From Jimgerdemannia flammicorona (taxonomy: Eukaryota): DNA of 36,153 nucleotides. Shown piece after piece: positions 1,561 to 36,153 of this stretch. The stretch covers positions 1 to 36,153 of the forward strand of contig RBNJ01000229.1 in assembly GCA_003990765.1 (NCBI GenBank), given 5' to 3'. The first letter of the stretch is position 1. Every line of letters begins with the position of its first letter. The position numbers and the translations under genes were made by a program. The notes under the pieces were generated by a model. That model did not search any database. It was not told the origin of the DNA and was given only the letters and a program-made list of their open reading frames with translations.

Positions 1561-2172
1561 AAGTAATGGGTTTCTTTGACAGGTGATAGAGCTTTTAATA
1601 TAATAAAAAATAATGATATAATATCAAATTAAATAAGCTTAAGTTTCTTAGAATAATTCAGAAATTATTCAGATAGTATATTATCTGATAGAGAATTTCT
1701 TAGCAAATGCATCATTCAAGATTTGACAGTCTTTGTCTATCCCTTTGTCTGTAGATAATATTGTCTTTTAAAATTATTTAGCAGACAAATTAAAGTTTGA
1801 AAAAAATGATTTTTTGAAACATTGTTTTTCTGTTAAAAATATATCTCAATTTGTTTAAAAACAATTTTTTTTTTTAAAAACTATTATGATTTTAAAAGTT
1901 ATAAACTTTTAAAATCTTGTCTCTAAATTTAGGTGCAAAACAGTCAAAGGGATATACTGCCTATTCACTGCCCTTTATTGTCAATTTCCTAATGATCTTA
2001 TGATCTTTATCTTGTAGCTTATAGACTTATAGACTTACAGTATCCAAATTGAGGCCTTATGAAACAATTATCTAGTACAAGCATAAAGAGTGTTTAAAAT
2101 GGTTCTATGTAATACTACTATATTATAACAAACTCTCAATCTATATATCTCTCATACTTATATCAATGATAT

Positions 2173-2277
2173 AAGCAAATAAGTTCACTTACAAAAATAG
2201 TAAGCAAATAAGTTTATCTACAAAAGCAGTAAGTAGACAAGTTTTTTGTAAGCAAATAAGTTTACTTATAAAGCACT
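2173..2277 (+). repeat. Degenerate ~29-bp tandem repeat upstream of the piggyBac ORF
   Basis: AAGCAAATAAGTT-like units start at 2173, 2202, 2231 and 2250. Confidence 0.6.
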
Positions 2278-2399
2278 CAAGTTTCCCACCTCTATTACTA
2301 TACTTACCCCCCACTTCTACCACTATACCTACCTCTATATCTACTACCTCTATACTAGAAATTTATAAGAAAAAGTAGCAAAAGGAAACAAACTATTAT

Positions 2400-2629
2400 G
2401 ATCAAGATTCCATGCTGACCAGATCATATAACTACTAATGATAAGAGTAAAAATAAGATCATATCTGTTATTTTCACCATTCTTACCATAGATAATGAGA
2501 GTATAGATGATGGAGATATAGATGACAAGGATGGAGAATATGAGGATATAGATAATAAAAATGTAGAGAATAACAATGAGAATATAGATGATAATGATAA
2601 GTATATGAATAATGAGTTTATAGATAATG

Positions 2630-2661
<32 letters not shown>

Positions 2662-4305: not shown

Positions 4306-4383
4306 AAAAAATAAATATGTTAATAGTTGGTAAGCAGGTAATATATAATACAATAAAGTAGAATCTTACTAATACTAATATTT

Positions 4384-4437
4384 ATCTATTCTAAATCTAT
4401 TCTAAATCTATTCTGAATCTATTCTAAATCTATTCCA
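4384..4437 (+). repeat. 11-bp tandem repeat (ATCTATTCTAA) x5
   Basis: Seen directly, just 3' of the piggyBac ORF. Confidence 0.85.
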
Positions 4438-5579
4438 GAGTACACCAGTCTTATCTAATCACAGACTTTACTTGGAGCCCCATTTCTTTTTCATCACTGA
4501 GGTGCTGATGACTATTAATCTTGCTGGAGTAATATTGAATATAACTAGATATATCATTACAGATAGCTATATATTTGTGAATAGTATATATATTTCATAT
4601 AGTTAATTCAAATCTAACAAGGTAGTGCTCTTTATTATAGTCTGAAAGAGATAGTTATTACTTGCTCTTCATCATAGTTGAAGATAGTTATTATACTTTT
4701 ATAGTAATAAAGTTCAATAGTAAATTATAATAATAAAATGTAGTTAGCTATTTATTGAAATTAATCTTTATAAATACTATTGATAATTTTGTAAATCTTA
4801 TCCTCATCATCTACTATAGGTATATTTAGTATAAGCCTCTTTGTTAAGATATATTTATGAGATAAAACTAGAGGATTTTTAAATAAAGCTAGTATTATAG
4901 TATAGATATCTGGTCTTGATTTGCCTTTCATCTTATCTTTTGATAGCTAAAGATGTAAGATTCTCTATAACTATTCTATATATATCTTATATAGAACTTT
5001 ATACTTATCCAATACTGCCACTGACAGCTTACTATTATATAGTTTATAATATAGTACTGAGATGAGAGCCTTAATATCTGAAATTGAGACAAATACTGAT
5101 GGTCTTTTTACCTTTAGTTTTTTAATAAAAAAAGCTGAGACAGATGTATTATACTTCTTTTTTATTATAAGTTATTGAAGATAGTAATATATATCTGTTG
5201 AGTATTGTTTAAAAAATAAATAAATAAATAAAAGACATTAAGACAATCTTTTAAATTATCTCTGAAAGTAATATAAAATCATTTTTATAATAAATCTGAG
5301 AGAAATAGAAATTTACATAGATTATATATCTCCTTTTATTACTCCAAATATATATATATTATTAATATGTACTAATCAATAATATCTCTTTTATTAACTA
5401 AAGATACTCTTCATAAATTTAGTAGTTCTTCTACTGATCTTTGAATAGATAATTCAAGCCTATCATACTTATCTCACTACAATAGGTATATTTGTCATTG
5501 TTTGATATTCTCAATCTCTTAGTAATATTGGTTTCACTTATATCTGGTATTAATGACTACTTTAGTGATTTATTTATCT

Positions 5580-6400
5580 TTTATAGCTTTTTAATCTCTA
5601 TGAATACTGTATAAAATATATAAATATTAGAGTGAAGTTTTAGATCATACATCAGTCCTTTAAAAATCAAGTCTTTTATTAATATGTACAGATATAGAAT
5701 TAGACTAAAAATAGTTCTATAGTCATAGAGATATCTTTAGTATATAGTATTCATCTTTTGTATCTCATTCTATAGTAGATTATAGATCAGTAAGACATAT
5801 AGTATGATGAATAGAGCCCAGATATTAGCTATAAATGAGATATAATCTAACTGATGACTATTAACTAATTCAGGTAATTTATATACAGATAAACTAAGTA
5901 CATATCAGTTATACTATATTATTTTTGATATACATATATTAACTGATATACCAAAGTTGCAAAGTATGATATATAAGTTTTCTATATTAGATTTATATAG
6001 CAAATTGTTATACTTGATATTATAGTGAGTAATCTTATTATTGTGTAAATATAATATTACATTAAGGAGCCCTTTGAAAATAATAAAGATAAGTTTTTAA
6101 AGATTGACCTCTTCTTTTATTTAATTGATAAGATCAGCCACTGGTCCTTCAGTATGCTCTATCTTGATTGATGTAAAATCTTTAATCAAATATACTTAAA
6201 AAGCTCATACAATATTGGAGTAATTAAGTTTAAGAAACAAGTTTGTCTTATTCAATCATAATGATGTCAAATAACATAGCATCTTCTTTGCTTAATATCT
6301 TAACTACACATATCTCTCTGTCTAATTAACTTCCTTCAAAAACTATACTATAACTTCTGACACTAAGTTTATTACTTAGTTTGACTTTTTCACCTATCAT
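5580..6400 (-). pseudogene. Ser/Thr protein kinase pseudogene, heavily C>T/G>A mutated; decayed coding-like sequence may continue to ~4450
   Basis: Minus strand from ATG 6400: LSVRSYSIVF (GxGxYG loop after G>A), CVVKIL (VAxK), LNYSNIV*AF (LxHPNIVR), YLHNNKITHYNIKYNNL (HxDIKxDNL, 6027-6001), ILCNFGIS (DFG, ~5958-5950), LPE, ANIWAL (ADIWAL, ~5829-5812), LL* (LPW), MYDLKLH (DPxxR). Subdomains are colinear with no intron in the domain. Confidence 0.88.
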
Positions 6401-6543: not shown

Positions 6544-6582
<39 letters not shown>

Positions 6583-6606
6583 AAAAAAAAAAAAAAAAAA
6601 AAAAAA
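6544..6606 (+). repeat. Poly(A) tract (~63 nt, one T)
   Basis: Seen directly. Confidence 0.95.
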
Positions 6607-7053
6607 ACCCCAAAATATATAATACTCCTTTCTTAAAAAAAGTTTAAATTAAAGCAGTAATTTGGACAAAATTCTTGATGAACTAAAGTTAACTAAGTCT
6701 TAGCCAACCTTATTCAATCTTAGTTAAACCTGTTAGTTAAAACTTAGCTCATATCAACTGAAATCATTCTTAGGTTTAAGAATGTCTGTTCTTATTTTAC
6801 CTTAGCAAGCCTGCATACTGGGTCATCAGCTAAATACCTTCAGTCACGGCCAGAATAGTCGATATATGAGACTCACTTTGCGGCATTATGATGGTGGAAT
6901 ACATGCAAACGAGATACACATACACCACAATGCATCCAATTATATGAACCACGGACAACACTGAAGTCATTATCTCCCCTCTCCCCAAACAAGCACCCTT
7001 TGCACGTCCGAAACCTACTCAACGTGCAACTCTCCTGGTCGTCCTCTTCCCAT

Positions 7054-9047
7054 TTATTCTTTTCCTTGGGCCATGATCCTCTCGATCTCCTCAATGCTTC
7101 TGGGGACGGTGGTCAGGTTCTCGAACCCGTCCTCGGTGATGAGCACGTCGTCCTCGATGCGCACACCGCCCACGGAGCGGTATCGCGCTAGAACCTCGCG
7201 GTTGATGAAGCGCGCCGTGTCCGGGTCCGAGAGCACTGGATCGATCATGAAGTCGCAGAAGTAGATACCTGGGAGGGTGGGAGATTACACCGTGAACTAG
7301 AGATCCAATACCATGCAATGAAGAAACCCGCAATCCCAAAACCTACCGGGTTCGACCGTCACAACCATGCCCTTCTGTAGCGGCCGCCGCATGCGCAGGT
7401 ACCGGATACCCGGCTCCTGGATCCGCTCCACCCCCGCGGGGTAGCCGCCCACGTCGTGGACGTCCAGACCGAGGAGATGACCCTATTTGGATGAGCGGAT
7501 GAACGAGGAAATAGTAGAGGTGCGGGGCCCGATCAACACAGAATCACTCAGAGTTTACTGCAGCAAGTAATAATAAGATGACAATAGCGTGCCGCAAATG
7601 GTAGGGGACGAACATACCAGCCCGTGCGGAAAGAAGGCGGCGGTGACGTGGCTCTTGAGCAGCTCCTCCTCGTTGCCAACCAGGATGCCGGCCTTGACGA
7701 GGCCGCGAAGACCGACGAGCTCGGCCGTGCGGTGGACCCGCTCCCACTCCACGCCCGGCTTGATGATGGCGTAGCAGGCCTGCGGGAATTTGGTTTGTGG
7801 GCCGGAATCGACGATATGCATCAGGACCAGATATCGAGCAGCTCCCCTCCACCACGCCCAAACTAAAGAGACGTACTTAAATGACTTACATCCTGCATTT
7901 CCTCTACAATGTTGTAAATAACCCTAGCTTCCGCCGAGAACTTCCCCCCTGTTGGGTACGTCCTCGTAATGTCGCTTCCATAGCACATGAGCTCGGCACC
8001 CGCATCGACCAACAGCATCTGGTACGGGTTCTCTGCCTCCAACCACCTATTGTTCCGGTTATAATGCAGCGTGGCAGCGGCCTTCCCAGACGCGACGATG
8101 GGAGCATAGCACTGGAAGAACGCACCCCTCCTCGCACATTCGTACACAAACAGCGCGTGCATCTCGTACTCGTTCTGGCCCGGCCTGACCTCGCGCATCA
8201 GCCGCTCGTGCGCGTCAGACGAGATCCGGTTGATCCGCCGCAGCAGGTCGATCTCCCAGTCCTGCTTGGTGAGACGCGACTCAGCGAGGGCCGGGCGGAG
8301 GAAGGATATCTCGACTTGTGGCGAGGGAGTGAGAGATGAGATGGCCGGCAGGAGGACCGAGGTGTCAGTGATGTCGAGGGCGTGAATCGTGGTCGGACGG
8401 AGCGACTTTAAGACGCTCGGGAGCAGGGATTCGTAGTGTACCTCGTCGACGTCGTATTTGGCGAGGAGCTCGTCCGGGTTGTCAGGTTGGCCAATCCAGA
8501 CGATCGAGTCGGTGTCGACGGCTGGGACAAAGAGGAAGCTGCGGGAGGTGTTAAAGTCGTAGAGGAAGTGGAAGCCGGGCTCGTTGACGCCTGGTGGGGG
8601 AAGGAAAGGTGTTAAGAATCGGGGATGTTCGTGGCATCAAGCTTCGTGTCCTTGTTGATAAACGCTTGATGCTAACACTTGACAATTTGTTCATGACCAT
8701 GTGGTTCGATGCACACGCCTCTTTCCAAAACTCACCAGTCAGATAGAAGAAGTGACTCTCCTGCCTGAACGGCAATTCGACATCTGTGTCGTCGCGCATG
8801 TACAGCAGGTTGCCCCTAAGGTACACGACGCCCTCCGCAGCAGCGCCCATGTGGTGGACCATCTTCTGGACGTTGGTCTTGGTAGGGAGCCTGGTGTGCA
8901 CGCCATTGGTCTTGAGGCCTGTTTGAACGGGAAGGATGAGTTTGCGGGCTGGGAAGGGGACGGTTAGCATGGGTACATACTGGGACGAGCGTGAAGGGCG
9001 AGGGTGGCACCGCCGTGGGCGCTGTTGACGTTATCTCCGATGCACAT
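7054..9047 (-). CDS. pepP: Xaa-Pro aminopeptidase/prolidase, M24B family; 6 exons: 9047-8981, 8918-8736, 8590-7890, 7779-7618, 7482-7347, 7268-7054
   Basis: [59 protein letters not shown] and [12 protein letters not shown] (metal ligands intact). All introns GT-AG with consistent phase. The first exon is the least certain. Confidence 0.93.
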
Positions 9048-9829
9048 TGGAATGGGTGTCGACAACAAGAACAAAAAGAAGCAAAATAGCCAAAGTATGG
9101 GGACTTACACAAATGTAGTTTTTTCCACAATCACATGACACCTCTGATGACAAAAATCAGATCACATTGATACAGGTTGAGCACATGGATGCATGGATGG
9201 ACCCTGCGGACGGACCTCGTCACGTTGTAAATTCAAGATATTCGGGCTCTCTTTGAAGTCTAGGTTCTTACTCCTACTGATATTTCACCCCTTTGAGGAA
9301 CCCCGACCTCACAAATACAGTTTGCCCAGCTTCAATTCTTGGTAATGTTTCCCAGAAGCCACACACACGTATGTGAAATGGAAGATACCCACTGTTTCTT
9401 CGGGTTGCACTTTTTTTTTTTTTTTTTTTTCAAATTGTCTATTGGCAGGCGAAAGCCACTTGTTCAAAGTTCAAACAAACGGGCCCGAGTCACGGCAGCA
9501 ACCACCGTGTTGGCCTCTTTAACGAGGGCGTAAATAAACAATCGATGATACGAGGGGGTTGCGACGAATGGACCGGCAGTGACGTAGCTCTTGACTAGCT
9601 CGTAATTTGCCAAGAGTCCATATTTTTAATACCCTTTATAAGTAATATGTCTACATTGTAGCTCGCCTTCCCACGATGTTTTCGTTCGTCTCAAAGCCAC
9701 AAACACACCCCTAGAGCCGAGATTTTGCGCCCATTCGTTGGAGACTCATGGATATTCGGATATGGTGTCCTGTGAGTAATCAACACACGCTTATTACCAG
9801 GGCTCGTTCATAAACTCCACTTAGGCCGG

Positions 9830-10846
9830 TTTCATCCTCCAGAAACTGTGGTACTCGTCCCTGGAATGGAAGGACGAGATTGCCTGGCTGCCACCGGCTA
9901 TACGCCGCTACGAACGAAACCCAGTATCTCAACGGCGCCCTCAAGTGTCGAACAACTCCTTCACCGAGTACTCGTGGGATAACAAGGGCGGAGGCCTGCA
10001 CGTCTTCCTCTACCACCTCACCAAGAAAGACGAATTCAAGGTCAACGTCAAGGCATACTTTGATTTGTGCTGGACCCGCTCAGAAAATCCGCGCGGCCTT
10101 GGCTTTTATTTCTTCTGGGGCTCGCTCAGCTACGCTGCAAACGCCGCCTTCCTCATGCTCTGGCATTCCAAGGAGCTCGGACCCAACGACCCGTACGCCA
10201 AAAGCCTCAATACCTACGCTGTCCAATATCCTTGGCGACTGCGGAAGGTCGTGGGTCGTCGGGTTCGGCGAGAACTCGCCGCTACGACCATACCACAAGT
10301 CGTCCTACAACTCATATATCGACTACCCGCTGCGCGGACAGAATCAATCGATCGTCGGTGAAGATTTTTTGCATGGGTTGACGCTCAATAGGTTTATCTT
10401 GTATGGCGCTCTCGGGCCTGCCCAGAACGATTCTTACTATGACGATCGCTCCAATTACGAGTATACACTGAAGGTAGTTTTTATTATTATTTTGTACCAT
10501 TATTGCAATTCATTACTCTACGCGGCATTAGAGTCAACCAACGCCCATCCTCTCTCTCCCCACACAATAGTCACCCAAGACTACAACGCGGCCTTTACCG
10601 GCTCTGCTGATTGACTACTGCGGCAGCCAGAACTTCAAGCCCTTCACAGACTGCGGCCTGGACCTCGGTTGGTCACACCCTAACGCCTCCAAGCCGCCCT
10701 CGTGGCCCGCAAACGACTGCTACCACACCTGCAACAAGAACTACCAATTCCACCGCAACCGTGTCACGGGTACGAGCGCGGCGCACAGGACCGAACTGAC
10801 GGCAGAAGGCATACTATTTCATGAGCAATATGTATATTTGATTTAG
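9830..10846 (+). pseudogene. GH9 endoglucanase (cellulase) pseudogene, 5'-truncated and multiply frameshifted
   Basis: WYSS..WKDEIAW, LYAATNETQYL, YSWDNK, WGSLSYAANAAFL, ILGDCGRSWVVGFGENSPLRPYHKSS, LYGAL-GP..NDSYYDDRSNYEYT, DYNAAFTG, and a tail DCGLDLGWSHPNA..WPANDCYHTC. The motifs switch frame at about 9885, 9945, 10225, 10465 and 10605. Probable intron ~10474-10570. The N-terminal DAGD region is not found. Confidence 0.85.
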
Positions 10847-11655: not shown

Positions 11656-15246
<3,591 letters not shown>

Positions 15247-17089: not shown

Positions 17090-20000
17090 ATGGAATTAGC
17101 ACAGTCCCCACAAAACGCGACAGGAGGCCTCGTACGCCACCCAACCAACAGCGGCAACACCGGCGCAGTGAGTATCACTCCTTGAGACAACGAGCACTCG
17201 TCGCCTTTGTGCAGGCTGCGAGGGGAAAAGTCTACGAAGGCTCATCTAATCTCGACAATCATGCGATCGCCTCCTCCTCCTCCTCCTCCTCCTCCTCCTC
17301 CTCCTCCACAGATGGCTGTCATTGAGCAGACCGTCACGCGACTGCTGGTGGCGACTAAGCAGCTCCTCGAGGGTCTCACGAAATGGTCCCAGAATCGCAT
17401 GAGCGAGCAGCAAATTTACGATATTTACAACACGCTTGAAACGCAGTTCGCTTCGGCAAGCATAGCTTTTGAGTCGGCTGGTATAGAAATGAGGTATGAT
17501 GGCATAATTCAAGGAGGATTGAATCTATTGGCGAAAAATCCGCCAGCTTGCTCTGCCGAGTCCACACCCGTCCGGTCACGCAATTAACGCATTCAATCTC
17601 CCAGTGACCTGAGCCGAATACCAGCGGACCTCCGTACCTGCATCGATATCGCCTTATTCGAGGACCCGTCTATCTCGCTCGAGCGGCATCTCCCCACCAT
17701 CCGCGACGTGATCATCAAGCTCCTACAAGGCCTCAAGAAGAAGCAGGCCATCTTCCGCGAGCGTCACCAAGACTACTACTCCCCAATCATGGAGAAGCCT
17801 CACGAAGCCACTTCTACCCCTCCCCCTACCCCCGTCTCAGTCCCCGTCTCCGTCCCAGCCTCGGCTCCTCCCCCTGGCCCCCCACCCCGCCGCGCTGACT
17901 CCTTCAAAACCGTCCACCGACCCTCGCGTCCGGCTTCCCCGCGTCCGGCTTCTCCGCGTTCGGCTTCTCCGCGTCCGGCTTCTCCGCGTTCGGCTTCCCC
18001 GCACCCGACTTCCCCGCACCTGGCTTCCTCGCACCTGGCTTCCCCGTGCCCAATGTCTCCTCCTTCCCCAATTTTCTCATCCCAATCCCCGCCAAACTTC
18101 CCGAAAATCGCCACAAGAACTGCTTCATCTACCTCAAGAACCGCTTCACCTATCTCAAAAACCGCTTCACCTACCCCGGTCCTTTCACCACGCCTCCGTC
18201 CACAACAGTCAACAATAACTCGAGGTTCACCTCTCCCCCCCCCTCCCCCACCGCCACCGCCGCCGCTGCCCCCAGCGCGCGTAGCACGGCAACCCACGCT
18301 CCCCGATTCGGGCGACTTCGACCTCAATGATCCAAAGACCGCCGACGCGCTCGCTGCGCTCAAGAAACAGGAGAACCTCGCGCGAAGGTCGACTGTACGG
18401 AAATCCATGCTCATACGAGGTGGGCCTGTACCAGGTGGGCCTGGGTTCATGTTCGATAGACCCATCCCGGAAATGCCCAAGCGAAGAGTCATCACGGAAG
18501 AGCAGTCACCTATGCCCAGGTTACCGCCGGCGCAGAAGAAGGAGGACGGAGAAGATAATGGAGTGGACATTGCCCCCGCTAAAGAGAAGAAAGTCGTTGA
18601 TAAGGTGGTGGTAAAAGGTATGTATGTTTGTGCGCCGGGAGGGGGGGGGTTGATTGTGGTTTATTTGGTGTATTTTTCTCTCTCTTGGGTGGTAGTGGAA
18701 GCTTTGCATGAAGCACAACAATCATTCTTACCCGCCACAACGAATCTTTCATAACCCGCTTCCCCTACCGCACAGCCGAGCCGGGCCTCCAGCTGTACCT
18801 GCAGATTGGCAAGGCGGTGAAGCGAACGCGGTATGACGGTCCTATTAATCTTCCGGCGTTGCGTATGCTCTTCATCGAACGGTTCGAATACAACCCGCGC
18901 CAGGACAATTTTCCCAGCATCTATATCCGCGACCCCGTTACGCAGGTCTCGTATGAGCTCGAGGATTTGGGCGAGATTGGAGAGAACTCAGTACTGTCGT
19001 TGAATATCGAAGGTGCGTTTAGGAGGAAAGGGGGGAAAGGGGAGGTAGGACGGGCGAGTGAGAATGTAGCGGATTGAAGTGTGTGTTTGTTGTTGAGAAT
19101 AGAAGTAGGATTTTGACGACGTATATTCAATTTCTTCTCCCGTACACTCACTCATTCGCAGAGGTGGCTTTCGAGAACCTCCAAAAGCAAATCACCGACG
19201 GCTTCGTCGCCGTGAACAAAGACATTATTGACCTCAAGACTCTATTTTCTGAAAGCACGGAAATGGTCAAGAAGCAGCTCACGACCGCGCCCAAAACAGC
19301 CGCCAGCGCAGCAACTTCCATGATCCGCGAAGTAACGCGTAAGGTCATCGCCGCGCAGAACCCAGATGTTCCCTCCTCCACCTCCCCCGCCGCACGCGAG
19401 TTTTCCCCCGTCATGATCGCCGAGCTCAAGTCGCAGCACGAGGAGGTCCAGAAGCTAAGGCGCGACTTGAGCATCATGCGACAACTTTACACCGAGTTCC
19501 AAAACAATACGCACGCCATGCTCACTGCCTTGCGGGAGAAGGCGGTGGTGGTTAAGGAGCAGGTACCGACAGATTCGTCGCTCGCGAGAACGGGGATTGA
19601 GGCTGGAAAGCGGAAGGTCGATCGGTCGGCGGACGCTATCACGTCTAGGTTGGAGAAGCTGCAAGACGTGATAGATGAGCTTAAGCTCGATGTCACGAAG
19701 CGGAATTGCAAGCCGTCCGAGGCGCAGATCGGGTATTGTAGCAAGGAGGCCGAGGCGCTCAAGGACGAGATCGCGGAGCTGTCGGCGTACATCCGCACCG
19801 TCAAGCCCGTGTGGAAGAAGACGTGGGAGGAGGAGCTGCAGAATATCGTCCGCGAGCAGCAGTTCCTCAAGGAGAGGGAGGGGCTTCTGCTCGATCTCGA
19901 GGAGGACCACGAGGCACTCACAGAGGTATTCGACCAGCTTAAGAAAGTTCTCGAGTTGAAGCCCCGGCGCGTCACCCCGCGTGAGTTCCGCGTCGTACCA

Positions 20001-20297
20001 GCGGAGGAAGGGGGGGAAGGCATGAATGATGTGTTTAAGCAGGTGCAGTCCATTGACGTCGACTCGGAGAGGAGGTTACGCGCACTTAGGCAGGCAGAGA
20101 AGCTCAGGGAGGTAGAACTGTCGAATAGGATCGACGAGTTCGAGAAAGAGTTGACCGGGTTTGTCGAGAACAATAGGTTGAAGAAGACGGGCGGCACGGA
20201 GGAGGCTGAAAGATTGAGGCAGAGGAAGGACGCTCAGTTGCTTAAGACGTTGTTTGGAGGAGGCCCGGGGGGGGGCGGGGGTGGCGCGGCGCAGTAG
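17090..20297 (+). CDS. BUD6: Actin-interacting polarisome protein Bud6/Aip3; exons 17090-17167, 17312-17493, 17605-18617, 18776-19012, 19162-20297
   Basis: [140 protein letters not shown] introns in phase. Confidence 0.93.
17270..17307 (+). repeat. (CCT)n microsatellite forming the polypyrimidine tract of BUD6 intron 1
   Basis: Directly precedes the CACAG acceptor at 17311. Confidence 0.85.
17926..18045 (+). repeat. 15-nt coding repeat ([10 protein letters not shown]) in the BUD6 Pro-rich linker
   Basis: About 8 degenerate units of CGTCCGGCTTCTCCG type. Confidence 0.85.
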
Positions 20298-20606
20298 GAC
20301 GGGATATACTGCTCGGACTGACTGGCCTCGTCTGGGTATATTCGAATGTAATCTATAGCTATAAATTATATTCTCATTTGCATATCGCACCAAAACATAA
20401 ATGCTGGAGGACTATGCCTTTTGGGTCGAATAATTCATATATCAACAATGGTTTGATTGTCATTCCTGATTTCCTGATTTGGAGATCGCCGCCATGGAGC
20501 AGTCACACATCAGCCTTTACCCGAAATGCTCTTCCGCTGACGTTTTTACATTCAACCATCCTGAGAAGGCGCGCCCTTGCCCCTTCGTCCCTCCTGAACC
20601 CGAACC

Positions 20607-22463
20607 ATGTCCACACCCACCCTGTCCACCTCCCCCCCGTCCGCCTCTGACCTCGGCGAGAATGCCCGCCTGAGCTCTGAGAAGCCGCCAGCCCTGCCCT
20701 TCACACAACGCCACCGCAAAGCCATCATCCTCGCTTCTGTCGCTGTCATCCTCCTGCTCGTCGGCGCCATCCTCCTGGGTGTCCTGCTCCCCCGATTCCT
20801 CGCCAAAAACTCGGGATCTGGCCCCTCCTCCAACGATTCCTCCACCAATTCCTCCTCCAATTTCCCCTCCGTGCCGCCAAGCGAGCCCACCAACGCCACC
20901 TACATCCTCAGCCTCTTCAACAACACCTCCTACGACAACACCGCCCGCGCCAACCCCAACGTCCCGCCGCTCACAGAATCCTTCCCCTACGGCAGCCAGC
21001 CCATCCGCGGCGTCAACCTCGGCGGCTGGCTTGTCCTCGAGCCCTTCATCACCCCATCCATCTTCGATCCGTACAACCCGAACCCCTACAACGCCTCCCA
21101 AGGCATTATCGACGAGTGGACCATCTCCGCCTACCTTGGCACGACCGCCGCGCGCTCCCTCCTAGACAATCACTACGCTACATGGGTCACCGAAAAGGAC
21201 ATCCGTCGCATTGCTGACGTGGGGCTCGACCACATCCGCATCCCAATCGCATACTGGGCCATCGACGTCCAGAAGGACGAGCCATACATTCCGCATCTCT
21301 CGCTCTTCTACTTCCTTCGCGTGCTCGAGTGGGCAAGAAAATACGGCCTCCGCGTCAACGTCGACATGCACGCTTTACCTGGGTCGCAGAACGGGTGGAA
21401 CCATTCTGGCAGGTCGGGGATCATTGGATGGCTGAACGGAACCCTTGGGTCGTATAACGCATACAATAGGTCGTTGCCCATCATCGCGCAAGTCGCTAAG
21501 ATTGTGTCACAACCTAGGTATAGGAATGTTGTCACCATGTTTGGCCTCGTCAATGAGCCGTATATGCCCTCGCTCGTTATCGATACCGTACTCAAGTGGG
21601 AAGAGGATGCATATAACGTTGTCAGAGGGGAGGGGTTCACGGGGGTGGTGGTCATTTCGGATGGGTTTATGGGGCTGAATACTTGGACGGGGAAGATGCA
21701 ACCCGCGCAGGGGTACACGGATGTGGCGTTGGGTATGTCTCATTGATTTCAATTTGCTCGTCCATCTTGCAATCCTTGCTTGATTCATTTATCATCCGAT
21801 CCCTTCCCCCACTACAGACACCCACTTCTACCAAATATTTACGCGTCCCCAACTCGCTACCACGCACTACCAAAAAATCTCTGTCGACTGCACGGACGCC
21901 CGAACCTCACTCATGGCCTCCGGCAACCGCTCCACGGGGTTCGGTCCAACCATTCTGGGCGAGTGGTCCGTCGCCGAGACAGACTGCACCCACTTTCTCA
22001 ACGGCGTCGGCCTGGGTAACCGGTTCGACGGCACATTTGTCGATGGTGGGGCAGCTGTGTGTCCCAATTGCACGTGCAAGGGACTCAACGATACCACCAA
22101 TTGGACGCCCGTTTATAAGCAGTTCCTACAGGCCTTTGCACAGAGCCAGATTGATGGGTATACCAACTCGTGGGGATGGTTTTATTGGAATTTTAAGACA
22201 GAGTCGGAGCCGCATTGGAGTTATTTCGATTTGGTGGTGAGTTGTATTTTTTTTTTTTTTTTTCCTGTTGCTGTCACTTGTGTCGCGTGGTAGTATAAAA
22301 AATCGCTCACACCTTGTCATCACCCCAATCTCTCGCTACATCTCTGACACCTCGTCCGTTCTCTAAAAAGGATCTGGGCATCCTTCCGCAAAAGGCGTAC
22401 GCACCGACGTGGACATGCGCACAGAACCTTTCATCTGTACCTGTGAACATCCTTCAGCGATGA
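20607..22463 (+). CDS. GH5 glucan 1,3-beta-glucosidase, membrane-anchored ExgD-like; exons 20607-21732, 21818-22236, 22371-22463
   Basis: N-terminal hydrophobic helix IILASVAVILLLVGAILLGVLLP; IRGVNLGGWLVLEPFITPS, GLDHIRIPIAYW, DMHALPGSQNGWNHSG, catalytic LVNEP and ILGEWS, DTHFYQIF across intron 1, GWFYWNFKTE. Confidence 0.93.
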
Positions 22464-23198: not shown

Positions 23199-24686
23199 TC
23201 AACAACAAAACGAGGCGAACACACAAACATACCGAGCTTCTGGTAACGGCACAACATGTGACTGGGAATATTCGAGTAGCTGCCGACGCGTATAGAACTG
23301 GCTCCGATGCGACAAGGACGGAGGAACGGATGTGGCGCCATCCGCGAAAGAAAACCCGCTGCCGCTGCGTTCCGCTTCAACATCCCGCTGGTATTCGGCT
23401 ACGCGTTTTTTGACATACGACGCGGTCTTGTCGGAAGGGCTATCGCGCAGGTGTTTGTTGAAATGTGCGCGCACGTTCCCCGCCGACAGCGGGTAGAAAT
23501 GCCAGTCGGGATCGATCGCCTTCAACAGGTTCCCCAGTCGGACATCAACCTCACGCGCTTCAGGCCGTCGGGCTGGGTCGAGGTTCCAGCACGCGTTGAT
23601 GATCTCTTGGTACGCCGCTGGCGTGCCGGGGACTGGGTCCTCGCGCAGCCCGTCGCGTCGAAATAAGTCCCCTGCTGTTCCGCGTGGGGGCACGTGGCTC
23701 ACAAGCTGCCATAGGATGGTGCCTAGGCAGTATATGTCGGACTTTTGGGTGTATGGTGCGCGTGCGAAGCACTCGGGCGGGAGATAGGATAGTCGGCCGT
23801 AGCAACCGTCTTCGGGAGCGTGGGTGGTGGATTGGGCATTGGCTATGACTATGCCTAGCCCAATGTCGATGATCCCCAGCTGCATAGATTCTTCTCGCAC
23901 GAAGACTAGGTTGCCCGGATGAAAATCGCCATGCGCTAAGCCGAGTTCGTGGAGGAAAATGAGCTTCTCGCTGATCGAACAGGCCATTTTGTAAACTACG
24001 GACCAGGGCATGGCTTTGGCGGCATTGTTGTTTAGTCTTTGCTCAAGATTACCCCCTCCTGCGTACCGCGTAATAACTAAGTACTTTCCGGACTCCTCAT
24101 GCTTCGAAATTCCTATCAGTTTGAACCACCCGCTACGTGTGAACGTTCCTACACCCGTTACAATAAGTATGTTCAAGACAATCTGTATTCGGCATTGGGT
24201 AATATCGGAGAGCAAAACGGAAAGAAAGCATGAATAATCACTCCTTTTCCTAAGAACCAAGGGACCTGGACAACATTAAACTTCCACGAAAAAAAAAGCA
24301 AGGGGCTCGTTTCGACGCACCTCTTGCAACATGGATTTGTCAAATTCCTTGAGGGCGAAATCCTCTTCGACCAGCCGGGTGTTATCCTCATTCATGTATC
24401 GCAAACGACCCTTCCAAACGGTCGCAAACCCTCCCCGGCCGATCTGCTTCAATCCGCCGACGAACCTGACCAACGGGATCCAGACGAGGTACTCTTGCAA
24501 CATGGACAGTCCCAGCTCCGCCAGGTGGCCCGCAAGCTCGTCTTCGTACCGAAATTCCCGCTTCAGGTATCGGATCCAATTTTGCGCCGATTCGCTCAGT
24601 TCGTCGAACCGCTTCACCCGCGATAGCGCTTGTTGCAGCCGCGATTCTGACATCCTCGATTCGGGGAGCGGAGAGTTTGTTGACAT
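23199..24686 (-). CDS. Tyrosine-kinase-like (TKL) protein kinase; exons 24686-24321 and 24182-~23233/23199 (3' end uncertain)
   Basis: WIP...F..LKQIGRGGFATVWKG, FALKEF, YAGGGNL, HGDFHPGNLV, IIDIGLG, YGRLSYLPPE, YTQKSDIYCLG, CWNLDPARRP. A donor at 23232 with acceptor at 23173 would instead end the protein at ~23169. Confidence 0.88.
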
Positions 24687-25103: not shown

Positions 25104-28100
25104 CTAAATCATCCTACCATCCGTATTTTTATCCAAATTCATCTCGTCCTCCATCTCCTCCTCCTCCTCCCACTTCGCCGTAGCCTCATGATTCCTCACC
25201 ACCACCAGGTCGTCCTTTTCCACATCCACATTCACTCGCACTTTCTCGCCTTCCCTAACTCCACCATCAAGAATCAATTTTGCAAGCGGATTCAGCAACC
25301 GATGTTGGATCAGCCTGTTCAACGGCCGCGCGCCATATACGGGGTCGTATCCGTTATCCGCCAACCACACCCGCGCCGCCTCGTCCAGCTCAATAGAGAT
25401 ATGCTTGTCCACCAGCCGCTCACTTATCTCGCGCAATCGCACCTCCACAATATCTCCCAAGTTCTGCCGAGAGAGTCGGTTGAAGATCACAAGCTCGTCC
25501 ACTCGGTTGATGAACTCGGGAGAGAAGTGTTGACGCACCACTTCAAGAACTCGCTCCTTCACAAGCATTTGCCGCCGTGTCCCGTCAAGGTCCATCGCCG
25601 CCCCCGCAACAGGCGCAGATGCCGTGTCCGCTAGTAGTTCTGCGCCGAGGTTCGACGTCATGACGATAATCGTGTTGCGGAAATCAATCCGACGACCCTT
25701 CGAGTCTGTGATGTGTCCATCGTCCAGGACCTGGAGGAGGACGTTGGAAACATCTCGATGAGCCTTTTCCATTTCGTCCAAGAGGACTACCGAGTAGGGC
25801 TTGCGACGGACAGCTTCGAAAGCACCGCCTTCGTCGTGACCGATGTAGCCAGGCGGGGCGCCGAGGAGACGAGAAACTGCGTGCTTCTCCATATACTCAC
25901 TGGTGGTTGGAAGAGTTGATTAGAGATGTCAGTAAATCGGAAAATATTTTGTCGAATATCCTAACACATTAACTAGACAACACCAAATACTTGCCTCATG
26001 TCGATCCTAATCATCGCATTAGCATCATCAAACAAGAACGCCGCCAACTCCTTACACAGCAGCGTTTTCCCGACGCCAGTAGGCCCCAAGAACATGAAGC
26101 TTCCCAATGGCCTATTCGGATTCTGCAACCCCGCGCGGGACAGCCTAATGGCATTTGCAATCGACTGCAACGCTTGATCCTGCCCAACAACATGCTTCCT
26201 CAATTCTTTCTCCATCTGTAACAATTTTTCCCTATCCGACTTGGCCAAGCTTGTAACCGGTATTCCCGTCCACCTTGCCACGACTTCCATAATCTGCTCT
26301 GGCCCCACCACCTCCGTCAATAGGTTCTCCTCTACACTGGCCTCGGCATTTCTCAAGTCCTTCTCAACCGTCAGCCTCGCGATCTGCGCCTCGACGTCCG
26401 GAATCGCGTAATAACGGATATCTGCTGCCGCGTTCAGATCATACCGTCGCTCGGCCTCGTCAGCCTTGTTCTTCAACGATTCTAGCTTCTGCTTCAGTTC
26501 GCGCACTTCGTCAAGACGACCCTTATCAAGGTCGTATTTAGCCTTGAGTGGTTTCAGCTGCTCCTTGATCTGTGCCATCTCGTCTTGCACTTTCGCCAAA
26601 CGCTCTTGAGAATCTTTGGAGTTTTTTTCTTTGGCTAGCGCCATCGCTTCGACCTCAAGCTGTAGATGACGACGTTCAAGAACGTCGATTGCTTCCGGTC
26701 GAGAGTCGAGTTGAACACGCGCATTGGCGCAAGCTTCGTCGATCTGTGGAGAATTGGGGAATTGGGGCAAGAACAACAGTGTAAATATTTTGAAAGTAGC
26801 CAAAGATATTGGACAAAGCATTCTTAAAAATAAAATGCCCTTCACATACCAAATCAATCGCCTTGTCCGGCAAAAACCTTGTCGTAATATACCTATCCGC
26901 CAACTGCGCCGCGGCGACCAATGCGGTATCAACAATCTTGACGCCATGATGATTTTCATACTTCTCCTTCAATCCCCTAAGGATACTAATGGTATCCGTA
27001 ACGGACGGTTCCCCCACGTTGACTTGCTGGAACCTACGCTCGAAAGCCGGATCCTTTTCGACAAGGCGCCATTCATTGAGTGTGGTGGCGCCGATGCAGC
27101 GGAGCTCTCCACGGGCTAGCATGGGTTTGAGTAGATTAGCGGCGTCCATCGACCCTTCGGCCTTACCCGCTCCAAGGGCTGTGTGGATCTCGTCGATGAA
27201 GAGGATAATGCCGACTTCGGATTCTTTCACTTCTTTTAGGACAGCTTTGAGACGCTCTTCGAATTCGCCGCGGTATTTTGCGCCGGCAACTCTGTGGAAC
27301 AAAGAGACGGTGAAAGGTAAATATATGATTCTAATCCAATAACGGAGATGAAGCCAAGTTTGGAGAGTCTCAAAATAATAATAATAAAATAAATACTCAC
27401 AACGAGCCCATGTCCAGCGAGAACAGTTTACATTGTAAGCTTTGTGGGACGTCGCGACGGACGATGCGCTGAGCGAGGCCCTCGACGATAGCGGTCTTGC
27501 CGACGCCCGGTTCGCCGACCAGCACAGGGTTATTCTTGGTGCGACGAGCGAGGACGCGGATGACGCGGCGAATCTCGTCGTCGCGGCCGATGACGGGATC
27601 GAGTTTGCCGGACTCGGCCTGGGCGGTAAGGTCAATTGCGTATTTAGATAGGGCTAAAGTGGGATGGTGAAAAAAAAAAGGCGGATTACAAATCGGTTGT
27701 AGTATATATGTAGTGAAGAGTGGTTATAACATTTACAAATAAATACCTTCGTACTGCTCCTCGGCGCTCTTGCTCTCGACCCTCCTGTTTCCGCGGACTT
27801 GATTGATGGCGTTCTCGAGCGCCTTCTTCATGACACCGGCCTCCTGCAGCGGCACCAGTGTCGCTGAATCGTCGATGAGGGCGAGAATGATGTGGTCTAC
27901 GGAGATGTAAGAATCCTTCTGGTTCTTCTGGTGCTGCTGCGCGTTCCTCAGGAGCTTGGCTGTCTGTGGGCTGAGGCCAATTTCCGGCGGCGGCGGGTCT
28001 TGTGTCGGAAGGCGGACGAGCATACGCTTGAACTGGCGCTCGGCGACTGCAGGGTCGCCGCCTGCCTTTGCAATGATGGTTTTGAAGAGAGATGAACCGT

Positions 28101-28227
28101 CGGCCTCGTCGAAGAGCGCGCAGGCGATATGGGCGGGGGCGAGTTGAACATGGGAGAACTCGCGGGCGAGCTCCTGGGCAGCAGCAAGGGTCTTTTCGAC
28201 CTTGTCGGTGAATTGCATGCGATCCAT
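25104..28227 (-). CDS. HSP104: Hsp104/ClpB AAA+ disaggregase; exons 28227-27747, 27653-27401, 27291-26850, 26743-25995, 25899-25104
   Basis: Clp N-domain, [15 protein letters not shown], Walker [40 protein letters not shown]-domain coiled coil, second Walker [38 protein letters not shown]. No mitochondrial presequence, so not Hsp78. Confidence 0.96.
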
Positions 28228-28399
28228 TGCGTGTGTGTGTTTTGTGTGTGTTAAAGAGAGTGTTGGGAAAATGGCGGGTTTATATGCAAAATGATTTTAC
28301 CATATTTAGGATACCTTATGCAAAGTAAAAATCGGGCGAAACGAAAAAAATCGGGTGATACTATAAAGATATCCCTAAAATGGTAAAAATGACATCAGG

Positions 28400-29195: not shown

Positions 29196-29228
<33 letters not shown>

Positions 29229-29602: not shown

Positions 29603-30029
29603 GTGTCGTGGCATGGTTGGGTTTGGGCATGGTATAATATTTAGCTTGGTTAGGGAAAGTGGTTTTTCTTTCTTTTCTTGAGGGACATGTATATATTAAA
29701 GACAATTGGGATATAACGGTACAGCTAATTTAAAATTACAGCTGCAGAGCCTGTTGCTCACATGGTTAAGTCTATCTCGCATGAAACGAAACGGTTATGC
29801 TGGTTGGATATATCTTGAATTCAAGTTACGGATGACTTGAGTCGGTCTCAGATAGACAGCATTGGCCATTACTAGTCACACCACCAAATCACCATATATC
29901 CAACCGGTGCTCCTAAGGCCCTAAGTAAAGAGGGATAATGTCGAAGACCAGGTGGAGTGTAGATAATTATAATTGTCTGCTGGAGCTGTTTCTGTGATTT
30001 GGGGGGGAGGGGGGAGGGGGGGAAGAGGG

Positions 30030-30300
30030 GGTCGCCAACTTCCCAGGCTGACCCTCCCCTCCTTGGAACGTAGAACATCACTGCCATCATAGTGTGTCAG
30101 CAGGGATACACTGCGCCTAACATAGCCAGATGTGCCTCGCGCGTACGGCTGCGTAAACTCAAAGAGTTTCGTTTTCGGGCAGGGGCATAAGTCATCCGGG
30201 AAATGAGGTTGTCGAGAACGAGACCAAGGCGAAAAGGTCGAGAGCAGATTGAGGTCATCAAGGTCATTGGTGACCATGATGCAAATCTCCGAATCTTTGC
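30030..30300 (-). pseudogene. Third, most decayed copy of the 2OG-Fe(II) dioxygenase-like module
   Basis: MAVMFYVPRRGGSAWEVGD matches the motif in the copies at 32.4 and 32.7 kb, then breaks into a C-rich tract. Confidence 0.5.
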
Positions 30301-32030
30301 CAAGTGGGAGGGTCGTTCCTTGCAACTGAACCGGCCAAAGATTGGTCGTTGGCGCGTTCAATAGCCTGACAATTAACATTTGGGGGAACATGTTGAGGGC
30401 TGTGTAGACACAAGTTCGTTCCAGGATCTCGTACTGCCAGTCTCTTCTGGTGCTTGAGCCTGTGCTTGAGCCTGTGCTTGAGCAAGAGGGGGAGGGGGCA
30501 TTCTTTCTTGCTTTGCATCACGGTTTTTGCTAATAACAAGGTTTCAGACTTGACTTGCGCCGTAGAGATTTCTGCAATCAGCTCACCATGCTCAGTTATG
30601 ACTCAGTTTTTGACGCTATCGAAAATGCCGGCTGGCTGGAGTACGCGACAGGCCGTGCTAAATATAAAACATGCCATGTTTTGATGGGTACTTTGGTACC
30701 ACTAACGCTAAGCAGTTTTCCTTTCAGTTGAGACGCTGGGCGGGGCTGCAGCTGAACGACCTCAAAGTCATCAGACGTAGAAACTGAGCTTGAATCTATC
30801 AGCACACTTCCCAAAATGTTAGGCTTCTACAACCATATTATAGACGAGCCTAGCAAAACTATGCATTTGAATGCGACATGCACGCGATACGGGCAGGTGG
30901 GCGATCCCAGTTTGTGTTGGCCGCGGGTCAAGGGTAAGCCACTATGGCAGGTATTTGACGGACGTGGTGGCATATCGACAGAGACAAGTAGAGCCAGATG
31001 TGAGTTGGTTGACCCTCCACCTTCTTCTTCCTTGCAAACGCCAGACTCTTGCAACGAAGTTCTGGTGTCCATACAACGAAAGGAGAAGAGGAAGTCTTGC
31101 GTGTGTGTGCGCATAGTGGCTATCGTCGTCGATGAATAGCTCGAAATATGCACGTCTCCCCCATGCATCGAGTCCAAAAACACTCGCAATGTTGTGGCGT
31201 GGAACGGCTTTGCTGGATCCAGTTGCCTTGAGAAAGGATTGCGGTGCTCCTTGGCTATCAACACGGATTTCGAGTATATTCTTCATTTTACCCATACCAC
31301 CTTGCCTGCGGATTTCCTTTGGTTGTGGATGTGTGGGCGTCCTCCATGATATTCTAGGTCATGTTGGATTTGATAGTATCCATCCATTCAGCATCTCCTG
31401 ATATCTCGCTAGCCAATCACGTACTCGTAGTCTCGTCAATTTTGACGCCCCGAATCCAGACAAACGTTCGCGAGGCCCGGGACGGCAGGAGAAGCACGAC
31501 GAAAAATAAGATGCAACGAGGTTCCCTATCAAACTGTTCAAAGGTAGCTTGTTTAAGTGGGGCAAGACTTCCCAGGCGCCTAGCGGTGGGACCGTACATG
31601 CACCTGGAAAATCCGAATCTGCATGTTCCATCGGTTTCGTCGCACCGGTCAACGGCCATTTCGCCAGTCGTACAGGTGCCAGCTCGCATCTTGTGAATAG
31701 GACCTCTAAACCCTCGGATCCCATGGTGTATTCCTCTCATGTCGCATTCCTTGTTCAACCCCGCCTCTCCCGGTACGTTGATCCCGCGGGGTGATGCCTT
31801 CTATCCAATCTCTCGAGTACAGAGGACGAAGTCATTCGTGTTCTGTTGGGCTGCTTTCGTGTACGGAATTGTCTGAGAGGACTTTGACGATGAATTTGTC
31901 AAATTCCATTTCAATTCTCATCACCCACATCCTCTGCCTCTGTTCACCTTCCTGTATAAGTCTCGTCCTATCTTGTTCTTCGTCCCCCTTCTCAATCTCC
32001 TCATCTTCATCTGGATCCGTCTCACACATT
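30300..32030 (-). pseudogene. Decayed coding-like sequence of unknown identity between the dioxygenase-like copies
   Basis: Overlapping 65-156-aa minus-strand ORFs in alternating frames, an acidic stretch (DPDEDEEIEKGDEEQD) and a 12-bp tandem repeat at 30451-30483. No recognisable motif and no consistent splicing. Confidence 0.3.
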
Positions 32031-32289
32031 TTAAAATCCTAATATGTTGCATTATAAATGTTCACTTATGTTATACAATTCATGTCTACATGCCTCTTCA
32101 ACGTCATCATCATAGCCTCGGCACTATGCCCTTGGCTTTTCCAGAGCTTTCAATCCTCCGGATGGAGGACTCATCTTTGCGGTCGACGGTGTTGAGTAAC
32201 TTTTTACTTGAAGTTGCTGAGTAGAATAATATGGCTTGTTCCAGCCCGGTGTGGGAAGAACGCCAGGATGAACCGGACAAATCCAAGTC

Positions 32290-32455
32290 GAGAAATCGGA
32301 CGAACACGAGTCTTCCAGGAACCCGACCGGCGGAAGAGCGCTACTGTGTTTGATAAGAAAGGGACGCCAAACCCATATGTGAGGTTATACCACACCTCGT
32401 CGCCAAGCCGCCAGGCAGGCCCCTTCCTCACTGGAACGTAGAAAATAACAGGCCC
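32290..32455 (-). pseudogene. Second copy of the dioxygenase-like C-terminal module
   Basis: IFYVPVRKGPAWRLGDEVWYNLTYGFGVPFLSNTVALF; the distal HGT motif is lost. Confidence 0.6.
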
Positions 32456-32518
32456 AGTCCTTGCAATGCAAGCTTGGCGAGCATTTGTCCGTCAAGCAAA
32501 CAATTTTGAGGATGACAT

Positions 32519-33170
32519 CTAGTCCCAGGTCATAATAAGCCTGTCGTCCGTTGTAAGTGCGACAACGGTTGTGTCCGAGCTCTCTTCAAAGGCAACAGTG
32601 CCATGGAAATCGTGCAGCTGGAATAAGACTGCCGTGTTGGCTGCAAACGGGACCCCGAAGCCATAGGTGAGATCATACCAGACACCTCCACTGCTCTCCC
32701 AAGTGGGGCCCTTCCTATCCGGGACGTAGAACATCACCGAAGTGACGTTGGTCAGTCCAGGCTAGCAAGGTCGAGGGAGACTTGGTGCGCATGTCACGGA
32801 GTCGACGGACGTTTTCTCCATATTGTCTGTATTTGAAATACCATAACTCCTGTTTTTGTCAATCTTGGCCACCTTTTTTTCCCACTTGCGATCTTCAAGC
32901 CGGGCACATCGTTGAACTTCTGCATGGCCTCACTTCGCGTGAGGTCCGTGCGTTCTTTTAAAGTCGAGTTGAAGACTGCGAGCGAGAATTTATTCAAGTC
33001 GAAGGGATGAAAATCCAATCTGAGTGGAGTCGGCTGGTGGTCGCTGGCCGGATCACTGCGTGGGGTACGGGCCCGACTTCAGCAAACCCAAATCTGCACG
33101 ATCCCACTTCGCGTAGGGTCTGTGCATCCTTTAAGGTTGAATTGAAGGCCGCGCGTAGCACTTGCCGAGT
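32519..33170 (-). pseudogene. 2OG-Fe(II) dioxygenase-like (TET/JBP-like) pseudogene fragment
   Basis: VMFYVPDRKGPTWESSGGVWYDLTYGFGVPFAANTAVLFQLHDFHGTV resembles the last strands of a double-stranded beta-helix with a distal His. Upstream GLKIASG..DKNRSYG is frameshifted in an A-run. FNSTLK segment duplicated (~32930-32985 and ~33100-33160). No intact HxD motif seen. Confidence 0.5.
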
Positions 33171-33692: not shown

Positions 33693-34702
33693 GCGCCATG
33701 GCATGCGCCCCACCGACAAATGAAAGGACCACTCGGAGCAGGGAGGGGAGACCCTTGGCAACCCCGCGCGGTAGGACCGAGCCCGCGTGTTCGAGAATGT
33801 CGAAACCCCCACGAAGTGGGTCGTAAAGTGGAATTAGAAGGATTTGTGGCACCTGAAGCGAAAATGGGAAGGAGGAGACGAAGGAAATGAAGGTATGTAT
33901 GGTTGCGAGAATAGGGTGAGAGGAGGGAATTTACACAGTTTGCGGGCGAACTGTAAAAGTCGTGACGCGGGCGTCGTGAGCGTGAACGGGCGGGAACAAG
34001 TTGTATATGCCATGTGTTGGGTGCGTGGACAAAGATTCGGTAATATGCACTACACAATGGGTGCGCTCGGACAAGGTTGCGGAACCTGTTGGAAACGGGG
34101 ACTTGGGGGTTTTTCGAGACAAACAGCGGGAACGAAAACAACGAAAAGTAAAAACGGCAAATTGTCTTCACACTGCGCGCACGGGCTTTGTCAGCGGAAC
34201 GCGTTGAGCATGGAGCCGGGGTTTTCGGTAGACCCTTTTCCCTACTAAACAAAGTGGATGGACAAAGTAAACGAAGACAGCAGCTGGTTTCCAACCTGAA
34301 CCTCACGCAAATCTGTCTCTGTCTCCACATCGGGTAAACATCCGACGGACGCATGCGCGATGCAACTCCTCCCCAACATCAATTACACGAAAGCTCAAAA
34401 AAAAAAAAAAAAAAAAAAGGTGAAATAAGGCCGACAGCAGACACTCCTGCAGTTTGCGCGCACTAATTTCTTTTAGTGTATTTCCTCTCCGAGATTATAC
34501 TCGGAAATTCCCGCACAACGTACGCGACTCCTAATCTAGCTACCAAATGTACATCTGACGAATATACCCCAATAATCCCTCTTCTACATACATCGTGTCA
34601 CACGCTCTCCTTCACCCACAACAATAATTCATTAATCGTCTTCCAAATCGACATTCAAGCCCCCCAAAAACCGTATACCGATTGTCATACGACGCATCAC
34701 GC

Positions 34703-35572: not shown

Positions 35573-36153
35573 ATGACAAATCAAGGTGACAACATACTAA
35601 CCCACCATCCCACCCACCATTCCCACTAACCAAACTGCTCATCCCGTTCGTCCCATTCCAGACCTCCTTGCCTACCTCTCCTTCGCTACCACCCTCGCTC
35701 GGGAGGCCGGCGCCATCATCCGGGACGCTCTGGACCGCCGCTTCCAGGGCGATGAAACGGGCACAAGCGTACTCGAAAAGTACCATAACCCATCGGATTT
35801 GGTCACGGAGACGGATCACGCTGTCGAGCGGTTCATTAAGGGGAGGATCGAGAAAGTGTATCCGGAGCATAAGTGGGTTGAGCGGCGTGCAGGGCGGGGT
35901 TTGTTTTTTGGGGTAGAGGAAGAGGAAGAGGAGAGTAATTATTGAAAGGGAACAATGTTTAATATGTATCTGTGCAATTGGCTGAGTAGATTCATTGGAG
36001 AAGAGACATTCGCGGCGGGAGGACGGATTGAGTTCACGGACGAGCCCACGTGGATCGTCGATCCGGTCGGTAAGTTACATTCCTCATTTGTTGACCTCTA
36101 CTAGCCATAACCGTCTCACCCCCTCACTTAATGCCCTTCTCCCCCCCCCCCCT
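35573..36153 (+). CDS. Inositol monophosphatase, 5' part only; exons 35573-35585, 35662-35872, 35990-36069, continuing beyond the window
   Basis: [44 protein letters not shown](D) IMPase signature. Intron 1 has ACTAAC branch sites. Confidence 0.92.

Follow-up and report, generated by a model that had tools for sequence, protein, structure and literature searches.

Contig RBNJ01000229.1 of Jimgerdemannia flammicorona (36,153 nucleotides, analysed at its full length and referred to below as the window) carries in its region 30030–33170 at least three broken copies (A, B and C) of genes from a rare fungal protein family. The copies are pseudogene fragments, dead relics in a locus that has no present function. 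Their intact relatives are likely to be TET/JBP-type Fe(II) dioxygenases that come nearest to the PE type of transposon-borne TET genes, and the locus is of value as a pointer to a tiny family for which there is no Pfam model. Coordinates are those of the whole window, and all copies are read from minus-strand frames (Table 1).

Three related fragments on the minus strand

A sequence-only reading of the region had noted three diverged minus-strand copies of the peptide motif FYVPxRxGxxW, and all the peptides that it quoted could be located in minus-strand frames. Copy A lies in the frame at 32519–32761 (peptide VMFYVPDRKGPTWESSGGVWYDLTYGFGVPFAANTAVLFQLHDFHGTV, continuing to the stop), copy B in that at 32204–32491 (peptide VIFYVPVRKGPAWRLGDEVWYNLTYGFGVPFLSNTVALFR) and copy C in that at 29872–30096 (peptide VMFYVPRRGGSAWEVGD). 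The likeness among them is far above chance. When compared by tblastn inside the window, A and B are 65% identical over 40 residues (E = 2.5e-15) and A and C 67% identical over 15 residues (E = 8e-4), and B and C match at E = 4.6e-4. The relationship is also visible in the DNA, where blastn aligns A and B at 70% identity over 94 nucleotides (E = 2.9e-4) and a repeat search recovers a three-copy family of 39 nucleotides (30043–30081, 32411–32449 and 32699–32737; 74–77% identical).

We built a hidden Markov model (HMM) of the family from outside sequences only and applied it, with no filters, to the window translated in all six frames. It matched the three copies and a weak stretch upstream of copy C, and nothing else. 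Positions 1–190 of the model have no match anywhere in the window under these settings, so the copies are C-terminal fragments only. The better-kept part of copy A runs from the beta-strands that follow the HxD site, through the GG..WY..YGFGVPF..NT block and the distal FHGT, into the C-terminal helix. The stretch upstream of copy C corresponds weakly to the VFNTTMRVL helix of the family (30606–30701, model positions 191–218, E = 0.064).

An FNSTLK segment upstream of copy A had been described as duplicated. This holds for the DNA, in which 32919–32980 and 33093–33153 are 76% identical over 62 nucleotides (blastn, E = 8.4e-5). It does not hold at the protein level, where the 13 residues involved reach only E = 1.6–2.7 by tblastn within the window, which is not significant, and the family HMM has no match there at E ≤ 20. 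By eye, the position and distance of the first segment (FNSTLK-1, 32941–32979) match those of the VFNTTMR helix of the family.

Copies A and B share 64% of their nucleotides and 63% of their amino acids. Over 41 aligned codons they show 9 differences at the first, 9 at the second and 26 at the third codon position (binomial p = 4e-4), with a nonsynonymous divergence (dN) of 0.27 and saturated synonymous sites. Because the codon-position bias and this dN occur together with synonymous saturation, A and B must have remained protein-coding long after their divergence, and both lineages were under purifying selection. The sequence-only reading had described the copies as tandem modules; given the saturated synonymous sites, they are old paralogues lying side by side and not the product of a recent tandem duplication. 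Copy B begins about 10–50 nucleotides past the end of copy A, in the same orientation. This leaves no space for the roughly 260 N-terminal residues that B lacks, so the layout arose by deletion or by insertion of fragments.

A rare family with intact members

When copy A was run through phmmer on a set of 1.84 billion representative proteins (E ≤ 0.001), four matches came back, three of which we judged to be real. P0001 (136 residues) is 87% identical to copy A (E = 6e-38), P0002 (134 residues) is 51% identical (E = 2e-19), and P0004 is longer (374 residues) and matches at E = 4e-4. The fourth match, P0003, is a fucose-lectin repeat protein and was treated as spurious. P0005 (259 residues) was recovered by a word-based search that started from P0004, and a scan of metagenome contigs yielded two further loci, L001 and L002. 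L001 has an intact gene in which three exons can be recognised (748–1182, 1266–1448 and 1534–1938), separated by GT..AG introns, although its start was not found; L002 is 99% identical to it and has in-frame stops. Homologue searches with copy A (longer targets), with P0004 and with a six-row family alignment (A1) returned only P0004, P0005 and P0001. None of the family proteins has a name or a Pfam domain, and none falls in a cluster of more than one member. The family of copies A, B and C is therefore tiny, rare and unannotated, and its intact members are about 370 residues long. Compared with P0001 by tblastn, copy C is 59% identical over 29 residues and 71% over a further 14.

The sequence-only reading had tied its proposal to an HxD...H signature in intact relatives, and the signature is present in all five. 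In each of the five rows that span the site (P0004, P0005, exon 3 of L001, P0001 and P0002), an H-x-D motif and an H-G-[ST] motif are 50–52 residues apart. As far as can be judged from sequence, this spacing would fit a small double-stranded beta-helix oxygenase. Seven other residues are invariant in alignment A1 (P0004 numbering): R298, G300, Y311, Y315, G316, N324 and F329.

L001 and L002 come from contigs of different samples, and L001 1–2716 and L002 156–2870 are 99% identical including the flanks. From L001 to L002, 15 of the 26 differences are C>T or G>A, nine of these 15 at CpG, and these changes create the stops in L002. This is consistent with methylated CpG having been deaminated in a copy that was repeated or silenced.

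Table 1. Fragments of the P0004 family, the second FNSTLK stretch and Pfam-identified genes in the window
Feature	Position	Strand	Basis
Copy A, better-kept part	32522–32749	-	Outside-only HMM E 1.4e-31, HMM positions 281–356; 88% identical to P0001 over 76 residues (tblastn)
Copy A, decayed 5' part	32750–32985	-	Read by eye; family HMM blind to it; weakest part of the map
Copy B	32330–32452	-	HMM E 7.6e-14, positions 283–325 (PVIFYVP...YGFGVPF..NT..LF); 61% identical to P0002 over 41 residues (tblastn)
Copy C, core	30031–30163	-	HMM E 5e-4 (positions 254–280) and 0.13 (positions 283–304, next frame)
Copy C, upstream part	30158–30701	-	WQYE block and GT..AG bounds by eye; helix match HMM E 0.064
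FNSTLK-2	33093–33153	-	Second diverged copy of the 62-nucleotide stretch holding FNSTLK-1
M24 aminopeptidase P	7863–8636	-	Pfam
GH9 fragment	9814–10614	+	Pfam
Aip3/Bud6	17588–20297	+	Pfam
GH5 cellulase	20598–21746	+	Pfam
Protein kinase	23199–24275	-	Pfam
ClpB/Hsp104-type AAA+ chaperone	25104–28279	-	Pfam

Each copy is broken in its own way

The 3' end of copy A is open across the last 76 aligned residues and stops at a TAG codon where P0001 carries tryptophan. Upstream, W-T-D replaces the H-T-D of the relatives, and a frameshift follows directly, within the conserved ..THTDNNVT.. block. Further upstream, remnants of the LPG.D..G and VWQYE blocks can be recognised by eye in shifted frames. Copy B has an H-C-K-D in a shifted frame upstream of its matching part (32468–32457, by eye), and its clear similarity to copy A in the DNA alignment ends before the distal histidine. 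Copy C reads FEFTQPYARGTSGYV...LLTHYD, with the H-Y-D codons at 30094–30086, then suffers a frameshift and continues in the next frame; it ends after ...AWEVGD, cut off at a C-rich run.

The metal site is thus represented by W-T-D plus FHGT in copy A, by a shifted H-C-K-D without a distal histidine in copy B, and by H-Y-D with the rest truncated in copy C. The sequence-only reading had stated that no HxD motif survives. This is partly wrong, for copy C does retain one, but no single copy has the full metal site. With the N-terminal ~190 residues lost from all copies, the first histidine of copy A replaced and its frame broken, the distal histidine missing from copy B, and copy C shifted and truncated, no copy can be functional. 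The earlier description of the region as decayed copies of one gene family is borne out by the family HMM matches together with the frameshifts and stops.

Two features of the upstream part of copy C were observed in addition. An in-frame stretch of 252 nucleotides bounded by GT...AG (30158–30409) lies between DWQYEILE and FTQPY, two segments that adjoin directly in P0001 and L001; it could be either a lineage-specific intron or an insertion. Just upstream of the WQYE block, the 12-nucleotide unit gctcaagcacag is repeated three times in tandem (30447–30485), encoding an SSTG-type peptide repeat in frame.

Probable relationship to TET/JBP dioxygenases

The assignment of the P0004 family to the TET/JBP-like enzymes is probable, although it is not proven. 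The earlier family call gains support from the HxD...H site of the relatives, from a search of the ESM Atlas and from collinearity with PE-type proteins seen by eye; it finds none in sequence matches to Pfam or the PDB. With P0004 as the query, the best Atlas cluster scores 0.96, with 209 of 256 features shared; this cluster belongs to Basidiomycota and has PF20515 (2OG-FeII_Oxy_6) on 15% of its members. Six of the 30 matches fall in the PF20515 set and 12 in the PF12851 (Tet_JBP) set, and the ten best named matches all belong to one family or clan; the third rank is held by an unnamed Mucoromycota cluster. A score of 0.95 is attained by roughly one in 100 shuffled proteins, and by the tool's own statement such a result is a lead and not a proof. 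Queried with the 80-residue fragment, the Atlas returned only unrelated viral clusters, at low scores (0.83).

PF20515 and PF12851 are the nearest named Atlas clusters and have the HxD...H metal site in common with the P0004 family, whereas no member of the family matches either HMM at E ≤ 10. To CcTET, NgTET, human TET2 and CMD1 the likeness would lie in a presumed 2-His-1-carboxylate site on a small, predicted beta-rich domain; there is no detectable sequence similarity to these enzymes. Gly331 and Asp337 of CcTET, which follow its HxD, have no obvious counterpart in the family, judging by section 3.4 of Kojima 2025 (PMC12730594).

The closest resemblance is probably to the PE type. The TET domains of transposon-borne genes are printed in Table S1 of Kojima 2025 (PMC12730594), from which we considered four PE rows: Plavaka-11_AB (Agaricus), Helitron-1_TuBo (Tuber), IS3EU-1_TuIn (Tuber) and Helitron-1_MoIm (Morchella). 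Five collinear blocks are common to the P0004 family and all four of these rows, as aligned by eye and with neither an E-value nor a computed score. In order, they are a ..QN.I.VD...E[IV]V strand at the N-terminal end; G....GY[ST]; a helix with [IV]F..(W/F)N, at the place of FNSTLK and IFSTACR in the window; LPR[ML][ND]; and H.[ED] followed by GG.F[FY]...YG[IF].[IV]....N[TS]..V.[WF]....FHGT[ST]. By eye, the order of the blocks is the same across a domain of about 260–330 residues, and it includes a very similar GG.F[FY]...YG..[IV]....N[TS]..V......FHGT[ST] stretch, which is kept in copies A and B. A hand count over the last block gives 13 identities in 33 ungapped positions between copy A and a Tuber row.

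The PE type was itself placed in TET/JBP by structure only, through AlphaFold DB models compared with CMD1, NgTET and CcTET (e < 1e-5), whereas HHpred reached CMD1 at E = 1.4 (PMC12730594). Ordinary profile searches are therefore expected to fail for such proteins.

Several results weigh against this assignment. The family has H-x-D in all five relatives, whereas section 3.4 of the same paper (PMC12730594) gives H-x-E as the hallmark of the PE type, and the comparison between the two was made by eye. The profile check against TET/JBP that the sequence-only reading had suggested came back empty: Pfam has no Tet match at E ≤ 10 in any of the ten family rows of a larger alignment (A3), nor do PF12851 and PF20515 match six window peptides, P0001, P0002 or P0004 at that threshold. 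PHROGs and NCBIfam contained nothing relevant. Sequence searches of the PDB with profiles A1 and A3 and with P0004 found no TET, CMD1 or NgTET, the one match, LPP20 (E = 0.38), being due to chance. AlphaFold2 models were unusable, with a predicted local distance difference test (pLDDT) of 38.6 for P0004 (six-row alignment) and 38.1 for P0005 (ten rows); Foldseek searches of the PDB with both models gave no match at E ≤ 0.001, which is meaningless given their quality. These low-confidence models have about four short strands between the HxD and the distal histidine. The Atlas recognition score of P0004 (2142) lies below the 2300 reached by most proteins of known families.

The presumed last strand of the fold adds a further difficulty. 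The residue before the G-L-S-L strand is leucine, alanine or valine in the family versus arginine in PU-type rows (by eye), and because this arginine is not conserved, binding of 2-oxoglutarate is not assured. R298 of the P0004 family is invariant but lies elsewhere. The same position varies among the PE rows considered, with arginine in Plavaka-11_AB and isoleucine in Helitron-1_MoIm (by eye).

The setting of the fragments also speaks against the assignment. PE-type genes ride in fungal DNA transposons, as described in Kojima 2025 (PMC12730594), whereas the window fragments have no visible transposon. A Pfam scan of 76 stop-to-stop open reading frames of at least 55 amino acids between 28.3 and 36.1 kb found no transposase domain, so the link to KDZ transposons put forward in the sequence-only reading is not upheld in these surroundings. 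Nor are the fragments flanked by convincing terminal inverted repeats.

Alternative explanations

One alternative accepts that the fragments belong to the P0004 family and takes that family to be another HxD...H iron oxygenase, for example a small-molecule or protein hydroxylase, or a cupin-like protein, with no role on DNA and a likeness to TET that reflects a shared fold. The lack of any Pfam, PDB or NCBIfam match to TET families agrees with this, as do the unconserved last-strand arginine (by eye) and an Atlas recognition score under the usual level. However, every named Atlas neighbour is Tet-like or Tet_JBP and none belongs to another 2-oxoglutarate (2OG) clan, and the five blocks collinear with the PE rows, though aligned by eye, reach well beyond the metal site. 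L001 and L002 are moreover near-identical, one of them with the CpG-to-TpG changes expected for methylated repeated DNA. We regard such an enzyme without a role on DNA as rather unlikely. It is more doubtful still that the P0004 family forms a separate TET-like branch in early-diverging (Endogone-like) fungi, a group without TET enzymes in the papers that we searched. Such a branch would have HxD and no last-strand arginine and, like algal CMD1, may rely on a co-substrate that is not 2-oxoglutarate, or may produce a DNA base modification other than 5-hydroxymethylcytosine. In that case, the length of time for which purifying selection acted on the A and B lineages would imply that this chemistry long mattered to the host or to its transposons.

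Other explanations concern the fragments themselves. Copy A could be part of a live, spliced gene with its other exons elsewhere, given its open frame of 80 codons, its 88% identity to the intact P0001 and the short exact contigs from two public sequencing runs (library type not recorded) that cover parts of the region. Yet its first histidine is replaced, the frameshift falls inside ..THTDNNVT.., where neither L001 nor P0001 has an intron position, the window contains no N-terminal half, and a TAG stands where P0001 continues; a live gene is highly improbable. The peptides might also be remnants of a Bys1 or thaumatin-like small secreted protein, or open frames due to chance, and Pfam Bys1 (PF04681) does match 23 residues of copy A at E = 0.053. 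That match scores 14 bits versus a gathering cut-off of 24.3 and occurs in two of ten family rows, both of them window fragments and neither an intact relative, while the outside homologues at E = 6e-38 and 2e-19 exclude chance frames. With a sub-threshold score, no counterpart in intact relatives and strong outside homologues, this explanation is refuted and has next to no probability left.

Proposed function of intact members

Transposon-linked TET-like enzymes are thought to allow escape from methylation-based silencing. For the P0004 family we infer a TET-like fold, a substrate in DNA and an anti-silencing role of this kind. In an intact member, the conserved H-x-D and the distal histidine of H-G-[ST] would hold the iron, and the enzyme would oxidise a methylated DNA base (5-methylcytosine, perhaps N6-methyladenine). 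Oxidation of the base would counteract methylation-based silencing.

With this family, transposon-linked, PE-like TET dioxygenases probably reach beyond the three fungal classes in print. Pucciniomycetes, Agaricomycetes and Pezizomycetes are the only classes for which the abstract of Kojima 2025 names transposon TET genes, and the strings Mucoromycot, Endogon and Glomeromycot each have zero occurrences in its main text (PMC12730594). A 2026 review assigns TET-type enzymes to Basidiomycota and Pezizomycetes (PMC13297926). Our literature search, which draws on these two sources, turned up no published account of TET-like genes in Mucoromycota. The intact members of the family, and not the window fragments, would be good material for the study of conflict over DNA methylation in early-diverging fungi.

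Genomic surroundings

Pfam identifies the window genes between 7863 and 28279 as ordinary housekeeping genes. A gene-poor stretch of about 7 kb, between the ClpB/Hsp104-type gene and an inositol monophosphatase gene, contains the fragments; the start of the phosphatase gene (35601–35942, plus strand) is the only real Pfam match between 28.3 and 36.1 kb. The sequence-only reading had taken the retention of CpG around the fragments, set against a CpG-free block near the left end of the window (1.35–6.85 kb), as a sign of counter-modification. The observed/expected CpG ratio is 0.89 in 30030–33170, 1.04 to the right of 6850 and 0.00 in 2001–6000. The region is therefore ordinary and the CpG-free island is the exception, so that CpG retention is uninformative about counter-modification.

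Long A or T homopolymers of 22 to about 100 nucleotides occur at 6544–6612, 14611–14716, 29197–29226 and 34397–34418, and two of these runs lie on either side of the gene-poor stretch with the fragments. Just past the truncation of copy C, on its downstream side, is a hairpin-like element of 104 nucleotides (29802–29905), with 20-nucleotide arms that are 85% complementary and 64 nucleotides apart. Its core (29827–29879) has a summed contig depth of 655 and 191 in the two public runs, versus 2–10 for adjacent unique sequence, and occurs with many different flanks. The element looks like a short, high-copy repeat resembling a miniature inverted-repeat transposable element.

Both public runs are small, and about a quarter of the words of the region occur in their low-depth contigs; with the library type not recorded, these contigs cannot show expression, and the absence of cover over the other parts is uninformative. 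For the FHGT region of copy A (32556–32656), both runs also contain an 89%-alike contig, in which 11 of 101 letters differ. Its depth is 71.6 and 14, versus 2–10 for the exact-match contigs, the same limit of library type applying to these figures. The higher depth of this contig indicates that a closer-to-intact paralogue of copy A exists, which is either multi-copy or expressed.

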